64,000 nucleotides of DNA from Enterobacteria phage GiZh: sequence record NC_054903.1; one strand, given 5' to 3'. A program made the translations under genes and the position numbers. Shown piece by piece: positions 2,942 to 29,508 of the stretch. The notes beneath the pieces are model-generated. The model was given only the letters and a program-made list of their open reading frames with translations, made no database searches and was not told where the DNA came from. How positions within the stretch are numbered: the stretch's first letter is position 1; each line of letters opens with the position of its first letter.

Positions 2942-4057
2942 ATGGAAAAATTTATGGCAGAGTTTGGACAAGGATATGTCCAAACGCCATTTTTATCGGA
3001 AAGCAATTCAGTAAGATATAAAATAAGCATAGCGGGTTCTTGCCCGCTTTCTACAGCAGGACCATATGTTAAATTTCAGGATAATCCTGTAGGAAGTCAA
3101 ACATTTAGCGCAGGTCTTCATTTAAGAGTTTTTGATCCTTCTACAGGAGCATTAGTTGATAGTAAGTCATATGCTTTTTCGACTTCAAATGATACTACAT
3201 CAGCTGCTTTTGTTAGTTTCATGAATTCTTTGACAAATAATAGAATTGTTGCTATATTAACTAGTGGAAAGGTTAATTTTCCTCCTGAAGTAGTATCTTG
3301 GTTAAGAACCGCAGGAACGTCTGCTTTTCCATCTGACTCTATATTGTCAAGATTCGACGTATCATATGCTGCTTTTTATACTTCTTCTAAAAGAGCTATC
3401 GCATTAGAGCATGTTAAATTAAGTAATAGAAAAAGCACAGATGATTATCAAACTATTTTAGATGTTGTATTTGACAGTTTAGAAGATGTCGGAGCTACCG
3501 GGTTTCCAAGAAGAACGTATGAAAGCGTTGAGCAATTCATGTCAGCGGTTGGTGGAACTAATAACGAAATTGCGCGTTTACCGACTTCATCCGCGATAAG
3601 TAAACTATCTGACTACAATTTAATTCCTGGTGATGTTCTTTATCTTAAAGCACAGCTATACGCCGATGCTGATTTACTTGCTCTTGGAACTACAAATATA
3701 TCTATCCGTTTTTATAATGCATCTAATGGATATATTTCCTCGACACAAGCTGAATTTACTGGGCAAGCTGGGTCATGGGAATTAAAGGAAGATTATGTAG
3801 TTGTTCCAGAAAACGCAGTAGGATTTACGATATACGCACAGAGAACTGCTCAAGCGGGACAAGGCGGTATGCGAAATTTAAGCTTTTCTGAAGTATCAAG
3901 AAATGGCGGCATTTCAAAACCTGCTGAATTTGGCGTCAATGGTATTCGTGTTAATTATATCTGTGAATCTGCTTCACCTCCGGATATAATGGTACTTCCT
4001 ACGCAAGCATCGTCTAAAACTGGTAAAGTGTTTGGGCAAGAATTTAGAGAAGTATAA
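2942..4057 (+). CDS. 35: long tail fibre hinge connector gp35
   Basis: 371 aa (T4 gp35 ~372 aa); position between 34 and 36. Confidence 0.85.
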   Translation: MEKFMAEFGQGYVQTPFLSESNSVRYKISIAGSCPLSTAGPYVKFQDNPVGSQTFSAGLHLRVFDPSTGALVDSKSYAFSTSNDTTSAAFVSFMNSLTNNRIVAILTSGKVNFPPEVVSWLRTAGTSAFPSDSILSRFDVSYAAFYTSSKRAIALEHVKLSNRKSTDDYQTILDVVFDSLEDVGATGFPRRTYESVEQFMSAVGGTNNEIARLPTSSAISKLSDYNLIPGDVLYLKAQLYADADLLALGTTNISIRFYNASNGYISSTQAEFTGQAGSWELKEDYVVVPENAVGFTIYAQRTAQAGQGGMRNLSFSEVSRNGGISKPAEFGVNGIRVNYICESASPPDIMVLPTQASSKTGKVFGQEFREV

Positions 4058-10566: not shown

Positions 10567-11027
10567 TAGTAAAGGTCCTCAGAGTAAAGTTCTTTTTCAC
10601 TACCACCGCGTTCAATACGTACTTGTCCAGCGTAAGTTGCAATAATCATTGCTTCTTCACGTGTCCAATAATTACTATATTGGTCAATAAACCCTTGGTC
10701 ATCATCACAAACTTGTTGAGTAACTAATTGAGGTTTAACTACATCTAAAACTGCTGCCATATCTTTAGAATAATGACGAGCACCCGGAATAACAAGAATT
10801 CGTCCATCTTTTAATTTAAAACGGTTGGCTGCGCAAACAATCCGTCGTTGGTACTTTTGGTTTTCATCCCAGTATGCAGACTGCCAACAGATTTCCGGAA
10901 CTTCTGCAAGAATATCTTCTTCTGTGCATTTATAACCATGTGCTTTAAACTTTTGAACAAGACTTTCTGGAGTCTCACGAGATAAAGGAATATTCAACAT
11001 TTTTAAACGATTAATAAATGGGTTCAT
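10566..11027 (-). CDS. hypothetical protein (153 aa)
   Basis: ORF; ATGA coupling with neighbours. Confidence 0.55.
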
Positions 11028-11353
11028 TTAAACCATCCTTTAATACGCTGCCACAAAGTTTTCTGTTGAGCTTTGTTAACACCAATTGAGCGAATAACTG
11101 GTTGAGATTCCTGGAATTCTTTATAATCGGCAAGGTAAATTTCGTAAGCTGCATCCGTAAATGAACTTATCGCTGCCATAAAATTATTGCGAATACCTAC
11201 TGGAGCATCTTTACTTTCACGAATAATCATGTATTTACCAGTCTTAATCTTTACAATAGTTCCAAGATAAGCTCCATGGTACCAAATATCCCAGCCCTCT
11301 TGAGTAGGTTCTGCGCAACGACGAAGTTCATTGACAATTTCTAACTTGTTCAT
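11024..11353 (-). CDS. hypothetical protein (109 aa)
   Basis: ORF upstream of motA-distal cluster. Confidence 0.55.
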
Positions 11354-23725: not shown

Positions 23726-24145
23726 TTATGCTAAAGCTGCTTCGCACCATTTTTTAATTTGGAATTCAGGAACTACCATGAACTGGCCTGCAAAAACAAT
23801 ATTGTAGAGCTTGACACCATCTTCTACCCAACGGTCCGAAATAAAACCAGCGACTTGATTCGTTGTCCATGGAGTTCCATCTGTTGCCGCCGCAATTGTG
23901 AATTTATGGTCTTTTACAACTAAAACTGAAGAACAAAGTTTCCATTTAAATGCGCGTTCTTCTGGCTCAATGAACTGACTTGAGACATAACCAATGTTAC
24001 CATCAGCGTCACGAACTTTAACCTCGTTACGACCAAAAACTGGATCACTTACAGAAAGAACTTCAACCAGCTTTCCTGCAACTTTAGAACGAGAAGCAAC
24101 GGATACATATACGTAATCACCAGTAGAGAGATTTACAATATTCAT
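23726..24145 (-). CDS. paralog-family protein A (139 aa; C-terminal DRWVEDGVKLYNIVF motif)
   Basis: shares N- and C-terminal similarity with the next ORF. Confidence 0.6.
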   Translation of the reverse strand: MNIVNLSTGDYVYVSVASRSKVAGKLVEVLSVSDPVFGRNEVKVRDADGNIGYVSSQFIEPEERAFKWKLCSSVLVVKDHKFTIAAATDGTPWTTNQVAGFISDRWVEDGVKLYNIVFAGQFMVVPEFQIKKWCEAALA

Positions 24146-24154
24146 AATAATTCC

Positions 24155-24628
24155 TTAAGCTTTACGAGGAGAAGCATAACGAGTGATTTCAGATTCTTCA
24201 ACAACCCGGAAGTCACCTAAGAATACGATATTGTAGAGCTTTTCACCATCTTCAACCCATTGGTCTGTGATGAAGCCACACATCCTATCAGTTTTACTTG
24301 GACCAGCGAAATCATCAATATAATCGAATTCTTCATCAGTTACAAATTCAACGCCTTTACACAACGCCCATTTAAATTGTGTATTAGACTCAGTGGATTC
24401 AACTTCTTCAACAGAAGCAAAATGAGAGCTAACACGAGTTTCCAGAAATTTAGGACTTACGTAAGCGTACTGAGTTTCAGTTTTTCCAGAACTAGGAATG
24501 ATTCGAACTTTAACTTCTTTAACACGACCAGTACCATTAGTACGAAGTCCTACCACTTCAACTAGACGACCTGCAGCTTTAGAACGAGATGCAGACGATA
24601 CACGCTTAATTTCACCGATAGTAATCAT
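24155..24628 (-). CDS. paralog-family protein B (157 aa)
   Basis: start set at ATG 24628 (ORF-track 24673 lacks RBS); SASRSKAAGRLVEV and DQWVEDGEKLYNIVF motifs. Confidence 0.6.
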   Translation of the reverse strand: MITIGEIKRVSSASRSKAAGRLVEVVGLRTNGTGRVKEVKVRIIPSSGKTETQYAYVSPKFLETRVSSHFASVEEVESTESNTQFKWALCKGVEFVTDEEFDYIDDFAGPSKTDRMCGFITDQWVEDGEKLYNIVFLGDFRVVEESEITRYASPRKA

Positions 24629-24700
24629 AATTTTTCTCTCTTTGTTGTTAAGATTTATACTCCGCAGGACCATTATACTCTGGTCCCAAGAGTTTGTAAA

Positions 24701-25138
24701 CTAGCTTACACGAACATTAATCACTGCGCTGCGAGGAACTACAGAGTACTCTCCAGCATGAACTACGTTCAGAAGTTCAACACCATCTTCAATCCACTGA
24801 TCAGTCACCCATCCACCCACAGGATTCGCGAATGGACGACGAATATAAACTGCCTTACACAGCAGATCAGTTGGATCTTCAGGTTTTTCAATTTCTGTCA
24901 ATAGACTAAAATCTTTTTCATAAATAATAAGCGGTGATACCATTCCATAATAGTTTCTAATTTCAATATACATCATACCGATAAGAATTCCGCTATTAAC
25001 ACTAATAACAGTAAAAGGATATCCGCCAGTTAAACCAAGAAGTTCACAAAACTTATTATGAGCTGTATTAGACAGTACCGAAAAATTCTTAATTTCATCA
25101 AATTTTTTCAATTGATAAACAGCATTATTTTTAATCAT
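24701..25138 (-). CDS. paralog-family protein C (145 aa; shares only the C-terminal motif)
   Basis: C-terminal TDQWIEDGVELLNVVHAG. Confidence 0.55.
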   Translation of the reverse strand: MIKNNAVYQLKKFDEIKNFSVLSNTAHNKFCELLGLTGGYPFTVISVNSGILIGMMYIEIRNYYGMVSPLIIYEKDFSLLTEIEKPEDPTDLLCKAVYIRRPFANPVGGWVTDQWIEDGVELLNVVHAGEYSVVPRSAVINVRVS

Positions 25139-25669: not shown

Positions 25670-25725
25670 CTATGGTGTTATAGTACCACAACTAACCGAG
25701 GAAGTAAACAACTTTTTATCGTTTT
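25670..25725 (-). promoter_or_regulatory. early promoter cassette
   Basis: GTTTAC ... GGTACTAT arrangement. Confidence 0.45.
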
Positions 25726-26399
25726 GTTGGAAGAGATAGAGGATCGCAATCTTCCTCTGATGGAGCATCTTCAAGACCCATAGCATATCGCAAAGCATAC
25801 TTCATCATCAGGATGTCTTTCGCACAGTCATGAATAGAATCATGTGCAACGAATCCATCTAAAGTTCCCTTTGGAAGAGGACATGTGGTCATATCACGAA
25901 CAAGCAAAAGTGCTTCAATTCTAGTACGAATATCACGTTGATTCCAGAATTTACATGGTTCTAACTTAAATGTGTCAAGTTCATTCTCGGAAACGCCGTT
26001 AAGACGCTGAATATCGCGAATGAGATCGACTAAAATTGGAAAATCAAACGACATTCCACGGCACCAGCCTTGAGATTTCCAAGGATCGATGTTATGTGCA
26101 TTGATGTAATCATTAAATTTTGCAATACCATCGATAGTGCTTACATCTTCATCTGATGGCGCAATATTTTTTCGAGCTTCAGGAGATTGATTCTTCCACC
26201 ATTCGATAGTGCTTTTAGTAAAAAGACGATGTCCTTTTTGGCTTTTTAAATCAAATTTGATTTTAATGCCACGTGAAACTAATTCATCAAATGTTTCAAC
26301 GACTTCTGGGTTAGGGTCAAAAGCAATTACAGCCAAATCAATAACAGCTGCTTTTTCACCGCTTCCCATTGTTTCAAAATCTATAATAAAATCAAACAT
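25716..26399 (-). CDS. dexA: exonuclease A DexA (DnaQ-like 3'-5' exonuclease)
   Basis: 227 aa, same as T4 DexA; DEDD-type motifs (FDFETMG). Confidence 0.85.
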   Translation of the reverse strand: MFDFIIDFETMGSGEKAAVIDLAVIAFDPNPEVVETFDELVSRGIKIKFDLKSQKGHRLFTKSTIEWWKNQSPEARKNIAPSDEDVSTIDGIAKFNDYINAHNIDPWKSQGWCRGMSFDFPILVDLIRDIQRLNGVSENELDTFKLEPCKFWNQRDIRTRIEALLLVRDMTTCPLPKGTLDGFVAHDSIHDCAKDILMMKYALRYAMGLEDAPSEEDCDPLSLPTKR

Positions 26400-26656
26400 T
26401 AAATTTTCCTCGCTAAATCACGAATTTGACCTACAGTATAGTCTTGAATATAAACTTTATTAATAGGCTCATCAATAAATTTTGCCATAGATTCAATGTC
26501 TTTTTGTATCTCTTCAAGACTGTATACTATCTTTAAAGCTTTTTCGCGAATAGTAACATTATCAGGTCCTGAATTTTCTTGAATGACAGCTTTAACATTT
26601 GCCATAAGAGATTTAAACTGGTACCAACTTAATTCAATCATTAATAATCGCCTCAT
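26399..26656 (-). CDS. small paralog 1 (85 aa)
   Basis: first of three tandem similar ~85-aa ORFs. Confidence 0.5.
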   Translation of the reverse strand: MRRLLMIELSWYQFKSLMANVKAVIQENSGPDNVTIREKALKIVYSLEEIQKDIESMAKFIDEPINKVYIQDYTVGQIRDLARKI

Positions 26657-26894
26657 AAAGATAGCTAATTTCGCCTAAAACGTAATCATTGATTGTAACA
26701 GTTTTCACTTCACCACAAAAGAATTCTAACGCAATTAAATCTCGTTCAATTTCTTCTAATTGAAGCATCAACTTACTAGATTCAATTTTTACAGTTTCAC
26801 GATTTTTACCATGAGCAATTTCATAAATTTCGCTAACTTTATCCTGAAGAAGATAAAACTGGTCTTTAGTTATTTCCACGAATAGCTTCCTCAA
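26634..26894 (-). CDS. small paralog 2 (86 aa)
   Basis: clear similarity to paralog 1 (MRRL/MRKL, LEEIQKDI/LEEIERDL). Confidence 0.5.
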   Translation of the reverse strand: MRKLFVEITKDQFYLLQDKVSEIYEIAHGKNRETVKIESSKLMLQLEEIERDLIALEFFCGEVKTVTINDYVLGEISYLYEAIIND

Positions 26895-27126
26895 ATTTAA
26901 TTAGTAATTTACAGACACTTTCATCTAGTGTAATTACCGTATCTGTATTACTGTGATATGATTGTTTTTCAATTCGTTTAATTGCTAATATAGTATCACT
27001 TATAAGATAAAGCTTATGAAGGAGCTCAGCTCCTGTTACCATAACATCGAGATTATCTTGCTTATTAGTATGCTTCCTTATACCATCTATTAGACGATTT
27101 AAATATTTTGAATTGATGTTAATCAT
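26866..27126 (-). CDS. small paralog 3 (86 aa, divergent)
   Basis: same size and position, weaker similarity. Confidence 0.45.
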   Translation of the reverse strand: MININSKYLNRLIDGIRKHTNKQDNLDVMVTGAELLHKLYLISDTILAIKRIEKQSYHSNTDTVITLDESVCKLLIKFEEAIRGNN

Positions 27127-27132
27127 ATAGCC

Positions 27133-28452
27133 TCACACATAAAACACATCATAACGACCACGTGTTACACCAACATAAAGAAGTTGTTGAGCTAATTCAG
27201 CATCTGCATAATGAATACAAGGCGTATAAATGAAAGCACGGTCTACAGACATACCCTGTGCTTTATGGAATGTTGATGCAGGAAGTGCTTTCACTTTACT
27301 AAACTGTGATTTAGCATCCCAAAAATCACTCCATGGAGCTTTTCCGCCTTTGTTCCAATTTTTATAAGTTTCTGCTGTTTTACCTAAAAATAGGTTAAAC
27401 TTATACAATTCTTCATCAGATGAAATTATTTTAATCTTTTCACGATAATATTCATCATCGCCGTAAGTTTCTACTGTTAAATCCCAATGACGAATTAAGT
27501 ATTCTCCTGGAACACCACGAGCTTTAACAAACGTTGATGTATACTCTGCTTCTATAATACGAACTAATTGTCCGTTATTAAAAATAATTTCTGACACAGG
27601 CTTTCCATCAATTTTATATGTTTTAATTAATGGTTCCTGCATTACAATAATTTCACCGACAATAAAATCTTTATCAGTTTCAAAAATCTTTTTACGAATA
27701 ATGCTATTTAACTTGTCAACAGATTTATTCGTAAATGCCATTACGCGATTTTCAAACAAATCATCTAGTGATTTGACGATTGAAAAATAATTTACCATAA
27801 AATCGCGTAAAGCGGTATCACCAGTAAATCCACGTACTCCATGCCCGTCAACAACTTTATCATAAATCCACTTACCGTTGCGAACATCAGTAGCTACATC
27901 AATAATAGGAGCATTACTGCGTTTAACTTCAGTGAGTTCACACTGATAAAAATCTTTATGTGTAAAGAATGGACTGATATAAGCAGTGTTTTCTCCTGGG
28001 TCAACAGGTCTAATTTGCTTATTATCACCTATTCCAATTATAGTACACCACGGCGGGATAGTTGAAAGCAGAATTTTAAATAGCTTTCTATCATACATTG
28101 ACACTTCATCGCAGATTAATACTCTGCATTTAGCTAAATCTGGTACTTCCTTCTGCTCAAAGAGGACATTTTCTTCATATGTTACCGGGTTAATTTTGAG
28201 AATACTGTGAATAGTACTCGCTTCTTTCCCTGATAGTTTTGAAAGAATCTTTTTAGCTGCATGAGTAGGAGCTGCTAAAATAATGCCAGTTTCGCCCGTA
28301 GATATTAAGGCTTCAATGATGAACTTAGTAAGAGTAGTCTTACCAGTACCAGCAGGTCCATTAATAGTTACATGATGTTTCTTTTCTTTAATAGCCCTCA
28401 TAACGATGTTAAAGGCATTTTTCTGGCCTTCTGTCAAATCATCAAATGTCAT
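27133..28452 (-). CDS. dda: Dda DNA helicase (SF1B)
   Basis: 439 aa, same as T4 Dda; Walker A GPAGTGKTT. Confidence 0.9.
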   Translation of the reverse strand: MTFDDLTEGQKNAFNIVMRAIKEKKHHVTINGPAGTGKTTLTKFIIEALISTGETGIILAAPTHAAKKILSKLSGKEASTIHSILKINPVTYEENVLFEQKEVPDLAKCRVLICDEVSMYDRKLFKILLSTIPPWCTIIGIGDNKQIRPVDPGENTAYISPFFTHKDFYQCELTEVKRSNAPIIDVATDVRNGKWIYDKVVDGHGVRGFTGDTALRDFMVNYFSIVKSLDDLFENRVMAFTNKSVDKLNSIIRKKIFETDKDFIVGEIIVMQEPLIKTYKIDGKPVSEIIFNNGQLVRIIEAEYTSTFVKARGVPGEYLIRHWDLTVETYGDDEYYREKIKIISSDEELYKFNLFLGKTAETYKNWNKGGKAPWSDFWDAKSQFSKVKALPASTFHKAQGMSVDRAFIYTPCIHYADAELAQQLLYVGVTRGRYDVFYV

Positions 28453-28760
28453 CGGAAAGTCCCTGCAATTGGAATACTAACAATACGCCCAGTATCTAGA
28501 ATTCGTTGATATAATCTTTGTGTATCTACATCAGGCTTAACATGTTTAACTTCTATTTTATTAAACCAAAACTTACGTGGAGTCTCAACTAATCTTGGAA
28601 TTCCTTTACCTAAAGCTAGTTTATATTGGTCTTTGAGAGTAGTAAAAACTCTATCAGCAATCTCTCTTTCAAAAAACACAGCAGGACGATGTTCATCAAG
28701 TGGAACTGGCGCCGTAAATCCGTCTTTGTCTCGGTAAACTATCGCATATACATAAACCAT
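28449..28760 (-). CDS. hypothetical protein (103 aa)
   Basis: ORF, ATGA coupling with dda. Confidence 0.55.
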   Translation of the reverse strand: MVYVYAIVYRDKDGFTAPVPLDEHRPAVFFEREIADRVFTTLKDQYKLALGKGIPRLVETPRKFWFNKIEVKHVKPDVDTQRLYQRILDTGRIVSIPIAGTFR

Positions 28761-28761
28761 A

Positions 28762-29508
28762 TTATCCTCGGATAAGTTTAAAAATTGAACAATTTAGCGG
28801 GTATCCTCTTTTCAGTTTAAGTTTATCAATAAAAGACAAGTTTTGATACCGCTCTACACCTTGAATAATTTTATCACACATATCATATTGCATTTCTGCT
28901 TCTGACAACTTTTTCACAATTTTCCAATCCGAGCCTTTAAGAAGAACGTTCAGTTTAACAACTTCAGCGCCTTCTGCTATGCGAGAACCATCAATACGAG
29001 CTTTAAGTGCTATAATCCTTAGCTTAATGTCAGAGGTCTGTTTTGATTTAGAAAGCTGAGAAATATGTTCAATTCGATTTTCACGCTTTTTCTGTATAGC
29101 TTTAATTTGATTATAAGTCTTTTTGATTTTAGCCCATTTCTTTTCATCTAAATTTAGTTTATGAACTTTTTTCGCAGATGAACGACCAATTCGCAAAGCA
29201 AATAAATCCCGTTTTTCAATCAACTCTTCTAAAGTATAATCAGAACGAAATGTATTATACTTTTTCTTTACTGCAATAACATTCCCTTTAATGTATCCAA
29301 TGTTATTATCAAAACGTTCTAATGATAATTTCTCTCCTTCAATACGATTATCAAAAGGTTCTCCCGAGTAAGCACAAACTTTTTGATCTAAAATGTTCTT
29401 AATGTAATTGAAGTCTAAGTTAAAATCTTTAGAACGTCTTTTTGCAGATGCCTGAGTATGCTCTAAACGACGTTTAATTTTACGAATTTGGTTATTAGAC
29501 AGCTTCAT
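28762..29508 (-). CDS. srd: basic protein (248 aa), Srd-like by position
   Basis: Lys/Arg-rich; located between dda and modA/modB. Confidence 0.4.
   Translation of the reverse strand: MKLSNNQIRKIKRRLEHTQASAKRRSKDFNLDFNYIKNILDQKVCAYSGEPFDNRIEGEKLSLERFDNNIGYIKGNVIAVKKKYNTFRSDYTLEELIEKRDLFALRIGRSSAKKVHKLNLDEKKWAKIKKTYNQIKAIQKKRENRIEHISQLSKSKQTSDIKLRIIALKARIDGSRIAEGAEVVKLNVLLKGSDWKIVKKLSEAEMQYDMCDKIIQGVERYQNLSFIDKLKLKRGYPLNCSIFKLIRG

Follow-up and report, generated by a model that had tools for sequence, protein, structure and literature searches.

Bacteriophage T4 is the best-studied large lytic phage, yet its early and middle genes include many small ones without a known role. Two of these, dexA.1 and dexA.2, lie between the genes for the DNA helicase Dda and exonuclease A (DexA), and are already known as T4 genes of one database family. 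In T4 the genes dda.1, dda, dexA.2 and dexA.1 are reported to be carried on one mainly middle-phase transcript with a single start site, a leader of 101 nucleotides (nt) and ∼35 per cent capping with nicotinamide adenine dinucleotide (bioRxiv 10.1101/2024.04.04.588121). DexA.2 is also one of two T4 proteins that become covalently linked, in its case at K5, to cGAS by Cap2 of the cyclic oligonucleotide-based antiphage signaling system (CBASS) (PMC10097602), and it is thus made during infection and accessible to a host immune enzyme. In a CRISPRi-ART knock-down screen of T4 on a laboratory host, dexA.1, dexA.2, dexA, dda and dda.1 were all classed as ‘Not fit’, that is, without an effect on fitness; dexA.1 scored −0.52 and dexA.2 −0.26 (PMC11879866, supplementary file 15). 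A full-text literature search found dexA.1 and dexA.2 mentioned only in these transcript, cGAS and knock-down studies, with no function given.

Here we describe the same interval in a 64,000-nt stretch of Enterobacteria phage GiZh (NC_054903.1; hereafter the window), which is a segment of a Tequatrovirus (T4-like) genome. The 2.8 kb around the locus share 97.3–97.9 per cent identity with phages that include Ge15, RB51 and RB68, and 653 phage records match this region. Three small genes, all on the minus strand as are dexA and dda, fill the position between those two enzymes (hereafter the slot); in RB51 they are named dexA.1, dexA.2 and RB14ncORF017c, the last of which we call ORF3. We put the probability at roughly nine in ten that the three are homologous and belong to a family that occupies the dda–dexA slot throughout the Tevenvirinae, with the third copy lost in T4. 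The membership of ORF3, the view of the family across genera, its copy-number series, the scar left in T4 and the correction of start codons are new, and together they make a tidy finding in annotation and evolution rather than a surprise.

An initial annotation, made from the letters alone, had called three consecutive open reading frames (ORFs) here, and the longest minus-strand ORFs are indeed at 26399–26656, 26634–26894 and 26866–27126 (85, 86 and 86 amino acids (aa)). The comparison of copy number with T4 that it proposed gives two genes in the T4 slot against three in the window. The dda.1 region, which it had named as the place to look in T4, was misdirected because dda.1 sits on the opposite side of dda; the real counterparts are dexA.1 and dexA.2, which in T4 have the same position and the same overlapping starts as the first two genes of the window but are without the third, a spacer of 21 bp separating dexA.2 from dda. 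The window's DexA.1 is 97.5 per cent identical to that of RB51 and 92 per cent identical to the T4 copy, and its DexA.2 is identical to protein cluster P0079 and ∼96 per cent identical to the T4 copy.

The relationship between the first two genes, which had been read partly from a shared MRRL/MRKL beginning, stands on other grounds. The two proteins are 30 per cent identical over 83 aa by BLASTP (E = 3e-10), both match PHROG 1700 (dexA.1 at E = 1e-43, dexA.2 at E = 6e-49), and near-identical clusters of both carry a precomputed Pfam tag, PF26837, an accession for which a literature search returned no papers. By these comparisons the paralogy of dexA.1 and dexA.2 is solid, and it is already encoded in the databases. 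The shared beginning, however, is not protein at all. In T4 and RB51 dexA.1 is annotated to start at the second ATG (26641) and dexA.2 at a GTG (26879), and the longest ORFs begin five codons too far upstream in both cases (26656 for dexA.1 and a TTG at 26894 for dexA.2). A Shine–Dalgarno sequence precedes each annotated start, GAGG at a distance of 9 nt for dexA.1 and GAGGAAG at 6 nt for dexA.2. The ATG with which ‘MRRL’ would begin is ATA in five of nine aligned Tequatrovirus loci, and the annotated dexA.1 ATG is invariant. These internal codons are, on such evidence, almost certainly the real starts of both genes. MRRL and MRKL are therefore what results when the two ribosome-binding sites, aTGAGGcg and tTGAGGaa, are translated.

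A single protein in the Dhakavirus slot appears intermediate between these two paralogs, with an N-terminus (TKDQFY) like that of dexA.2 and a C-terminus (DYxVGQIRDL) like that of dexA.1. This mixed likeness fits a tandem duplication followed by asymmetric divergence, and dexA.1 and dexA.2 would then have arisen from a gene resembling the single Dhakavirus copy. The pair is also tied to more distant genera, as a profile of slot proteins from five other genera aligns to the dexA.1/dexA.2 profile with probability 97.5 and E = 7e-12 (hhalign).

The initial annotation had taken ORF3 for a divergent member of the same group, and this holds only indirectly, through the wider slot family. Compared directly with its two neighbors ORF3 has no significant pairwise similarity (BLASTP E = 21 and E = 22), the very outcome that had been named in advance as refuting the relationship and one that does not apply to dexA.1 against dexA.2. 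A profile of 21 dexA.1, dexA.2 and Dhakavirus sequences finds nothing significant in ORF3 or in an alignment of it (hhalign, E = 0.3–0.6), ORF3 does not match PHROG 1700 at E up to 10, no Pfam tag is attached to its clusters, and it was not retrieved when 1.84 billion representatives were searched with a HMMER profile, which returned only four full-length clusters, all of Tequatrovirus or Dhakavirus types. Profile–profile comparison, which had been suggested as the check, thus joins dexA.1 and dexA.2 to the wider family and fails to join ORF3 to its neighbors, but reaches it through that wider family. ORF3 matches PHROG 4967 (E = 8e-59) and, over its full length, also PHROG 5263 (E = 1.8e-5), the family to which the slot protein of phage CC31 belongs (E = 3e-28) and which dexA.1 and dexA.2 match at E = 8e-4 and E = 2e-7. 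The five-genus profile aligns to ORF3 at full length over 77 columns (hhalign, probability 78.8, E = 1.7e-5). A 13-member hidden Markov model (HMM) from which ORF3 was left out gives it 21.9 bits, and the best of 86 other ATG-initiated ORFs of 60–130 aa in the window reaches 8.5 bits. That best-scoring frame (11024–11353, minus strand, 109 aa) was considered as a further relative and set aside; its hhalign score of 20.7 covers 21 columns, and the likeness is probably chance.

There is some reason to think that ORF3 could instead be an unrelated accessory gene that has converged on a similar shape, leaving two paralogs only. Weighing against its membership are the lack of any direct similarity to dexA.1 or dexA.2, the fact that small helical bundles can converge, and an asymmetry in the structural comparison described below, in which the ORF3 representative falls outside the top 50 Foldseek matches of the dexA.2 model. 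Of the three genes it also has the weakest profile match to the slot proteins from other genera. We nevertheless regard convergence as unlikely. Three independent tests with other-genera profiles link ORF3 over its full length at E ∼1e-5 to 1e-6, and none of 2000 shuffled ORF3 sequences reaches its score (maximum 12.5 bits; the reversed sequence scores 0.9 bits). Its score also equals that of an accepted extra copy in phage Cronus: when members are left out of the model one at a time, mainstream members score 46–62 bits, the two Cronus copies 28.7 and 22.5 bits, and gp23 of fHe-Yen9-01 7.4 bits, and by these comparable scores ORF3 is as much a member as the extra copies of Cronus and fHe-Yen9-01. 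Length, element order and position are shared as well, and motifs in it, LIDGI and ILAI among them, line up with the consensus of the family. Since ORF3 is closer in profile to proteins of other genera than to its own neighbors, it may be either an older paralog or a divergent heterologous allele stacked into the slot by recombination.

Structure predictions are consistent with a common fold. The AlphaFold2 model of dexA.2 (predicted local distance difference test (pLDDT) 93.6, alignment of 21 sequences) has strands at residues 2–4 and 60–62 and helices at 5–24, 28–55 and 65–79; that of ORF3 (pLDDT 85, alignment of five near-identical sequences, with two of the five models poor) has strands at 2–5 and 64–67 and helices at 6–21, 26–52 and 69–84. 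Both are predicted to be compact three-helix bundles closed by two short β-strands in the order β-α-α-β-α, and the same fold would be expected for dexA.1 from its 30 per cent identity to dexA.2. When the ORF3 model is compared with BFVD by Foldseek, its matches after its own Sf25 ortholog are small proteins of T4-like phages, the best of them those of Cronus (77 aa; template modeling (TM) scores 0.76/0.84) and fHe-Yen9-01 (76 aa), with CC31 (80 aa) and dexA.2 of BECP11 (TM 0.69/0.73, probability 1.0) among the others. Across both models TM scores to slot proteins range from 0.69 to 0.86, and the proteins retrieved with the dexA.2 model are largely the same. Given the missing ORF3 representative among the dexA.2 matches, the structural link between the two runs through shared neighbors and is not reciprocal.

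Other domain searches were negative. A scan of a local Pfam-A copy that evidently lacks PF26837 matched none of the three proteins and none of 14 family members (helix-turn-helix and ribbon-helix-helix models included), NCBIfam gave the three only sub-threshold noise (MinE, ESAT-6), PADLOC defense-system models gave no match to them at E up to 1, and PDB sequence searches with the single proteins and with the family profile gave coiled-coil noise only (E ≥ 0.08). No informative structural neighbor and no enzyme motif was found, and the conserved columns of the family are mostly core hydrophobics together with a loop Gly/Pro.

The slot family fills the dda–dexA position in nine of the ten Tevenvirinae genera sampled, with copy number (counted as genes for proteins of 76–86 aa between dda and dexA) ranging from zero to three. 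RB69 (Mosigvirus) has none, although it keeps DexA and a Dda 79 per cent identical to that of the window. One copy is present in Bp7 and PSD9 (Dhakavirus), CC31 (Karamvirus), JD18 (Jiaodavirus), SP18 (Gaprivervirus), Merlin (Moonvirus) and SEA1 (Gelderlandvirus); two in T4 (Tequatrovirus), fHe-Yen9-01 (Tegunavirus) and Cronus (Roskildevirus); and three in the window and other RB51-type Tequatroviruses. The single slot proteins of PHROG 5263 (from Karamvirus, Jiaodavirus, Gaprivervirus, Moonvirus and Gelderlandvirus; for example CC31p016) have the same position, 76–84 aa and the same predicted fold as the window proteins, but are 24–35 per cent identical to them where BLASTP detects any similarity, and occur as one copy against three. 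The pairs in fHe-Yen9-01 (gp23 and gp24) and Cronus (86 and 77 aa) are, as in the window, multiplied and translationally coupled copies between dda and dexA, and in each pair at least one copy falls far below the mainstream score range, as ORF3 does. In each multi-copy locus at least one copy has diverged strongly. These expansions may be independent of that in the window or orthologous to it, the sequences being too divergent for a reliable tree. Phage Aeh1 was considered as a further carrier and rejected, as its dexA is not beside dda, it has no slot gene, and its weak Foldseek matches lie elsewhere in the genome; the family claim is accordingly limited to the Tevenvirinae. ORF3 itself is found in 307 phage records, every one at 80 per cent identity or more, and dexA.2 at the same cutoff in ∼495 Tequatrovirus-type records; a scan of IMG/VR for ORF3 gave two loci only.

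The absence of ORF3 from T4 appears to be a loss that can still be read at the junction. On the minus strand of T4 (NC_000866, ∼3376–3414) the dda/dexA.2 junction reads ...TATGTATGATTAAATTTGAGGAAGCTATTCGTGGAAATAACTAA; T4 keeps ATGATTAAATTTGAGGAAGCTATTCGTGGAAATAACTAA, read as MIKFEEAIRGNN followed by a stop. This is a frame of 12 codons whose ATG overlaps the dda stop and in which ORF3 codons 1–2 are fused in-frame to codons 77–86, the retained tail aligning with the third helix of the family. The start of ORF3 reads ATGATTAA and the alleles L016–L018 end ...CTGATTAAATTT, so that a 7-nt direct repeat, TGATTAA, brackets exactly the part missing from T4. ORF3 was most likely lost from T4 by an in-frame deletion between these repeats, a direction of change that we infer. 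T4 is also without 10 nt that carry the ORF3 ribosome-binding site, and the stretch it keeps carries that of dexA.2. The 21-bp spacer between dda and dexA.2 in T4 is largely the scar of ORF3.

With the corrected starts the genes are very tightly packed. A gap of 6 nt separates dda from ORF3, with the TGA stop of dda overlapping the GAGG ribosome-binding site of ORF3; ORF3 and dexA.2 overlap by 14 nt, dexA.2 and dexA.1 by 8 nt, and dexA.1 and dexA by 1 nt (TAATG). Judged by these junctions, dda, ORF3, dexA.2, dexA.1 and dexA form a translationally coupled chain. All three small genes therefore share the features by which the slot is recognized, namely a position between dda and dexA, the same strand and translational coupling, and the same arrangement is seen in the eight other genera with a slot gene. 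Coordinates are collected in Table 1.

Table 1. Genes of the dda–dexA slot of phage GiZh, their neighbors and a candidate promoter (positions in the window; pI, isoelectric point).
Feature	Position	Strand	Description
dexA.1	26399..26641	−	80 aa; pI 5.4; start as annotated in T4 and RB51
dexA.2	26634..26879	−	81 aa; GTG start; pI 4.4; net charge −9
ORF3	26866..27126	−	86 aa; pI 7.9; RB14ncORF017c in RB51; not in T4
dda	27133..28452	−	DNA helicase; upstream neighbor, same operon
dexA	25716..26399	−	exonuclease A; downstream neighbor
dda.1	28449..28760	−	first gene of the T4 middle-mode transcript dda.1-dda-dexA.2-dexA.1
Candidate middle promoter	28861..28895	−	inside the 3′ end of srd; predicted start A 28861, 101 nt upstream of dda.1

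Two variants touch on these junctions. In phage ime09 (NC_019503, 1961–2440) the loss of 1 nt immediately ahead of the dexA.1 start joins dexA.2 and dexA.1 in a protein of 159 aa, and a fusion of this type explains why PHROG 1700 has 160 positions. The fusion may be an artifact of sequencing or a natural one that the phage tolerates, and if real it hints that dexA.1 and dexA.2 act side by side. In the record of Shigella phage sb1 (PQ666539) three separate coding sequences take the place of an intact dda, and ORF3 is truncated, a GAGG-to-GAGT change creating a stop; this record probably holds assembly or sequencing errors.

Ratios of non-synonymous to synonymous substitution (dN/dS), obtained by the Nei–Gojobori method and summed over pairs of eight to nine Tequatrovirus loci that are not phylogenetically independent and that include two genomes of seemingly low quality (KNP1, marked unverified, and sb1, with frameshifts), are 0.022 for dda, 0.016 for dexA, 0.11 for dexA.2, 0.18 for ORF3 and 0.21 for dexA.1. 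The three small genes are thus real coding genes under purifying selection that is 5–13 times more relaxed than that on dda and dexA. A similar disparity is seen between genera, where Dda is 59–79 per cent and DexA 60–69 per cent identical to the window proteins, and slot proteins are at most 41 per cent identical or undetectable by BLASTP. Within dexA.2 (32 cluster representatives) variation is concentrated at residues 21–35, where the chain turns from α1 into the first part of α2, and hardly any is seen in most of α1 or in the latter half of α2; residues 21–35 could be a variable surface patch. Most family members are acidic (pI 4.3–5.4), but ORF3, at pI 7.9, is not. DNA mimicry was considered as a property of the family and rejected, since dexA.2 is acidic but dexA.1 (net charge −1) and ORF3 (net charge +1) are not.

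Given that no enzyme family is matched and that the conserved positions are mostly core hydrophobics and a loop Gly/Pro, the slot proteins are most likely binding modules rather than catalysts. We tentatively favor the possibility, which falls short of being probable, that these non-enzymatic modules neutralize variable host proteins, in counter-defense or in host takeover, the kinds of role for which the initial annotation had regarded small duplicated early genes as typical hiding places. They would dock onto such proteins while phage DNA replication and recombination start, and with further diverged copies more targets or hosts would be covered. Several patterns favor a host-directed role: the family diverges much faster than Dda and DexA, RB69 does without a slot gene although it keeps both enzymes, copy number is polymorphic even among near-identical phages, multiplication with strong divergence of at least one copy has occurred in three lineages, and knock-down is without cost on a laboratory host. 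If the proteins are indeed host-directed inhibitors, their targets and effects on host range could be mapped with the natural series of zero, one, two and three copies that otherwise near-identical phages provide.

Small phage inhibitors as a class are small, without enzymatic motifs, often acidic, fast-evolving and variable in copy number, and they are dispensable on laboratory hosts and expressed before the late genes. The likeness of slot proteins to such inhibitors (anti-CRISPRs, Ocr- and Arn-type mimics, Gam-like binders) is one of analogy, from general knowledge; there is no sequence similarity or specific structural similarity, the pI of ORF3 breaks the pattern of acidity, and a position so fixed beside two conserved enzymes is unusual for an anti-defense gene. 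A much more specific proposal, that the slot is a counter-defense locus stacking divergent alleles with one immune target each, and that DexA.2 engages CBASS Cap2–cGAS as a decoy or as a cGAS-priming conjugate, is at present a long shot.

A host-directed role must also be set against a number of observations. Neither homology nor experiment connects the family to any host target or defense system. All dN/dS values are well below 1, with no sign of gene-wide positive selection, and the conjugation of DexA.2 to cGAS may be incidental labeling of an abundant protein. The knock-down screen is uninformative on conditional roles and missed 13 known essential genes (PMC11879866). In nine of ten genera, moreover, the genes keep their place between dda and dexA and are coupled to dexA, as would be expected of an enzyme partner, and this placement accords equally well with a role inside the phage.

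This last point leads to the main rival, in which the slot proteins are adaptors or regulators of Dda, DexA or both (or of gp32 or UvsX) that tune activity at forks or DNA ends, with paralogs specialized by partner. The conserved order speaks for it, as do the junctions, in which the slot gene overlaps the dexA start and begins no more than 10 nt from the dda stop or overlaps it, an arrangement that implies stoichiometric co-expression. The T4 slot genes also share a middle transcript with dda (dexA is not named in that transcript), and knock-downs of dda and dexA are likewise without fitness cost. Were the slot proteins partners of Dda or DexA, a classic system of replication and recombination would gain components that have so far been missing from it. 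It might be expected, however, that obligate partners of conserved enzymes would be better conserved and not polymorphic in copy number, and the slot proteins are much less conserved between genera than either enzyme, RB69 has both enzymes and no slot protein, and ORF3 comes and goes among near-identical Tequatroviruses. We therefore consider a partnership with Dda or DexA rather unlikely, and tentatively prefer a host-directed role to it.

Less probable still, and indeed improbable, is that the slot proteins are small DNA- or RNA-binding regulators, repressor-like or transcription-modulating in the manner of the neighboring motB, srd and modA. The neighborhood is rich in transcription modifiers, and the Dhakavirus homolog weakly matches PHROG 11451, a ‘CI-like repressor’ (E = 2e-4), but none of the window proteins matches it at E up to 10, the Pfam searches of 14 family members found no helix-turn-helix or ribbon-helix-helix domain, most members are acidic, and the predicted helices of 20–28 residues are unlike small DNA-binding motifs and too long for ribbon-helix-helix. 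That the frames are non-functional filler or mis-called, as the absence of a phenotype in the T4 knock-down screen might suggest, is hardly credible given dN/dS of 0.11–0.21, frames that are intact in the good-quality genomes compared, conserved ribosome-binding sites, confidently predicted folds and a DexA.2 peptide detected in infected cells.

Database labels have meanwhile assigned these genes a function of their own. In many GenBank and RefSeq records dexA.2 is called ‘dextranase’, and both dexA.1 and dexA.2 are called ‘exonuclease’. Neither name has support, as there is no Pfam, NCBIfam or PDB match and a helical bundle of 80 aa contains no such domain, and the names look like errors spread from the gene symbol.

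Upstream of dda.1, a candidate promoter within the 3′ end of srd (Table 1) has a −10 element, TAAAAT, at 28873–28868 and a MotA-box-like aaTGCAATA around −30. Its position fits what is reported for T4, a leader of 101 nt and an adenine at −1, and it is the probable middle promoter of the operon; a general scan with promoter and terminator consensus sequences found sites no more numerous than expected by chance.

Beside the slot lies a second tandem series of paralogs, three genes of the motB family (139, 172 and 145 aa; 23726–25138, minus strand) that are annotated in RB51 as a motB-like ORF, motB and motB.1. They have a common C-terminal motif, GF(I/V)TDQW(V/I)EDG, and BLASTP identities of 39 per cent (E = 7e-29) and 32 per cent (E = 3e-13).

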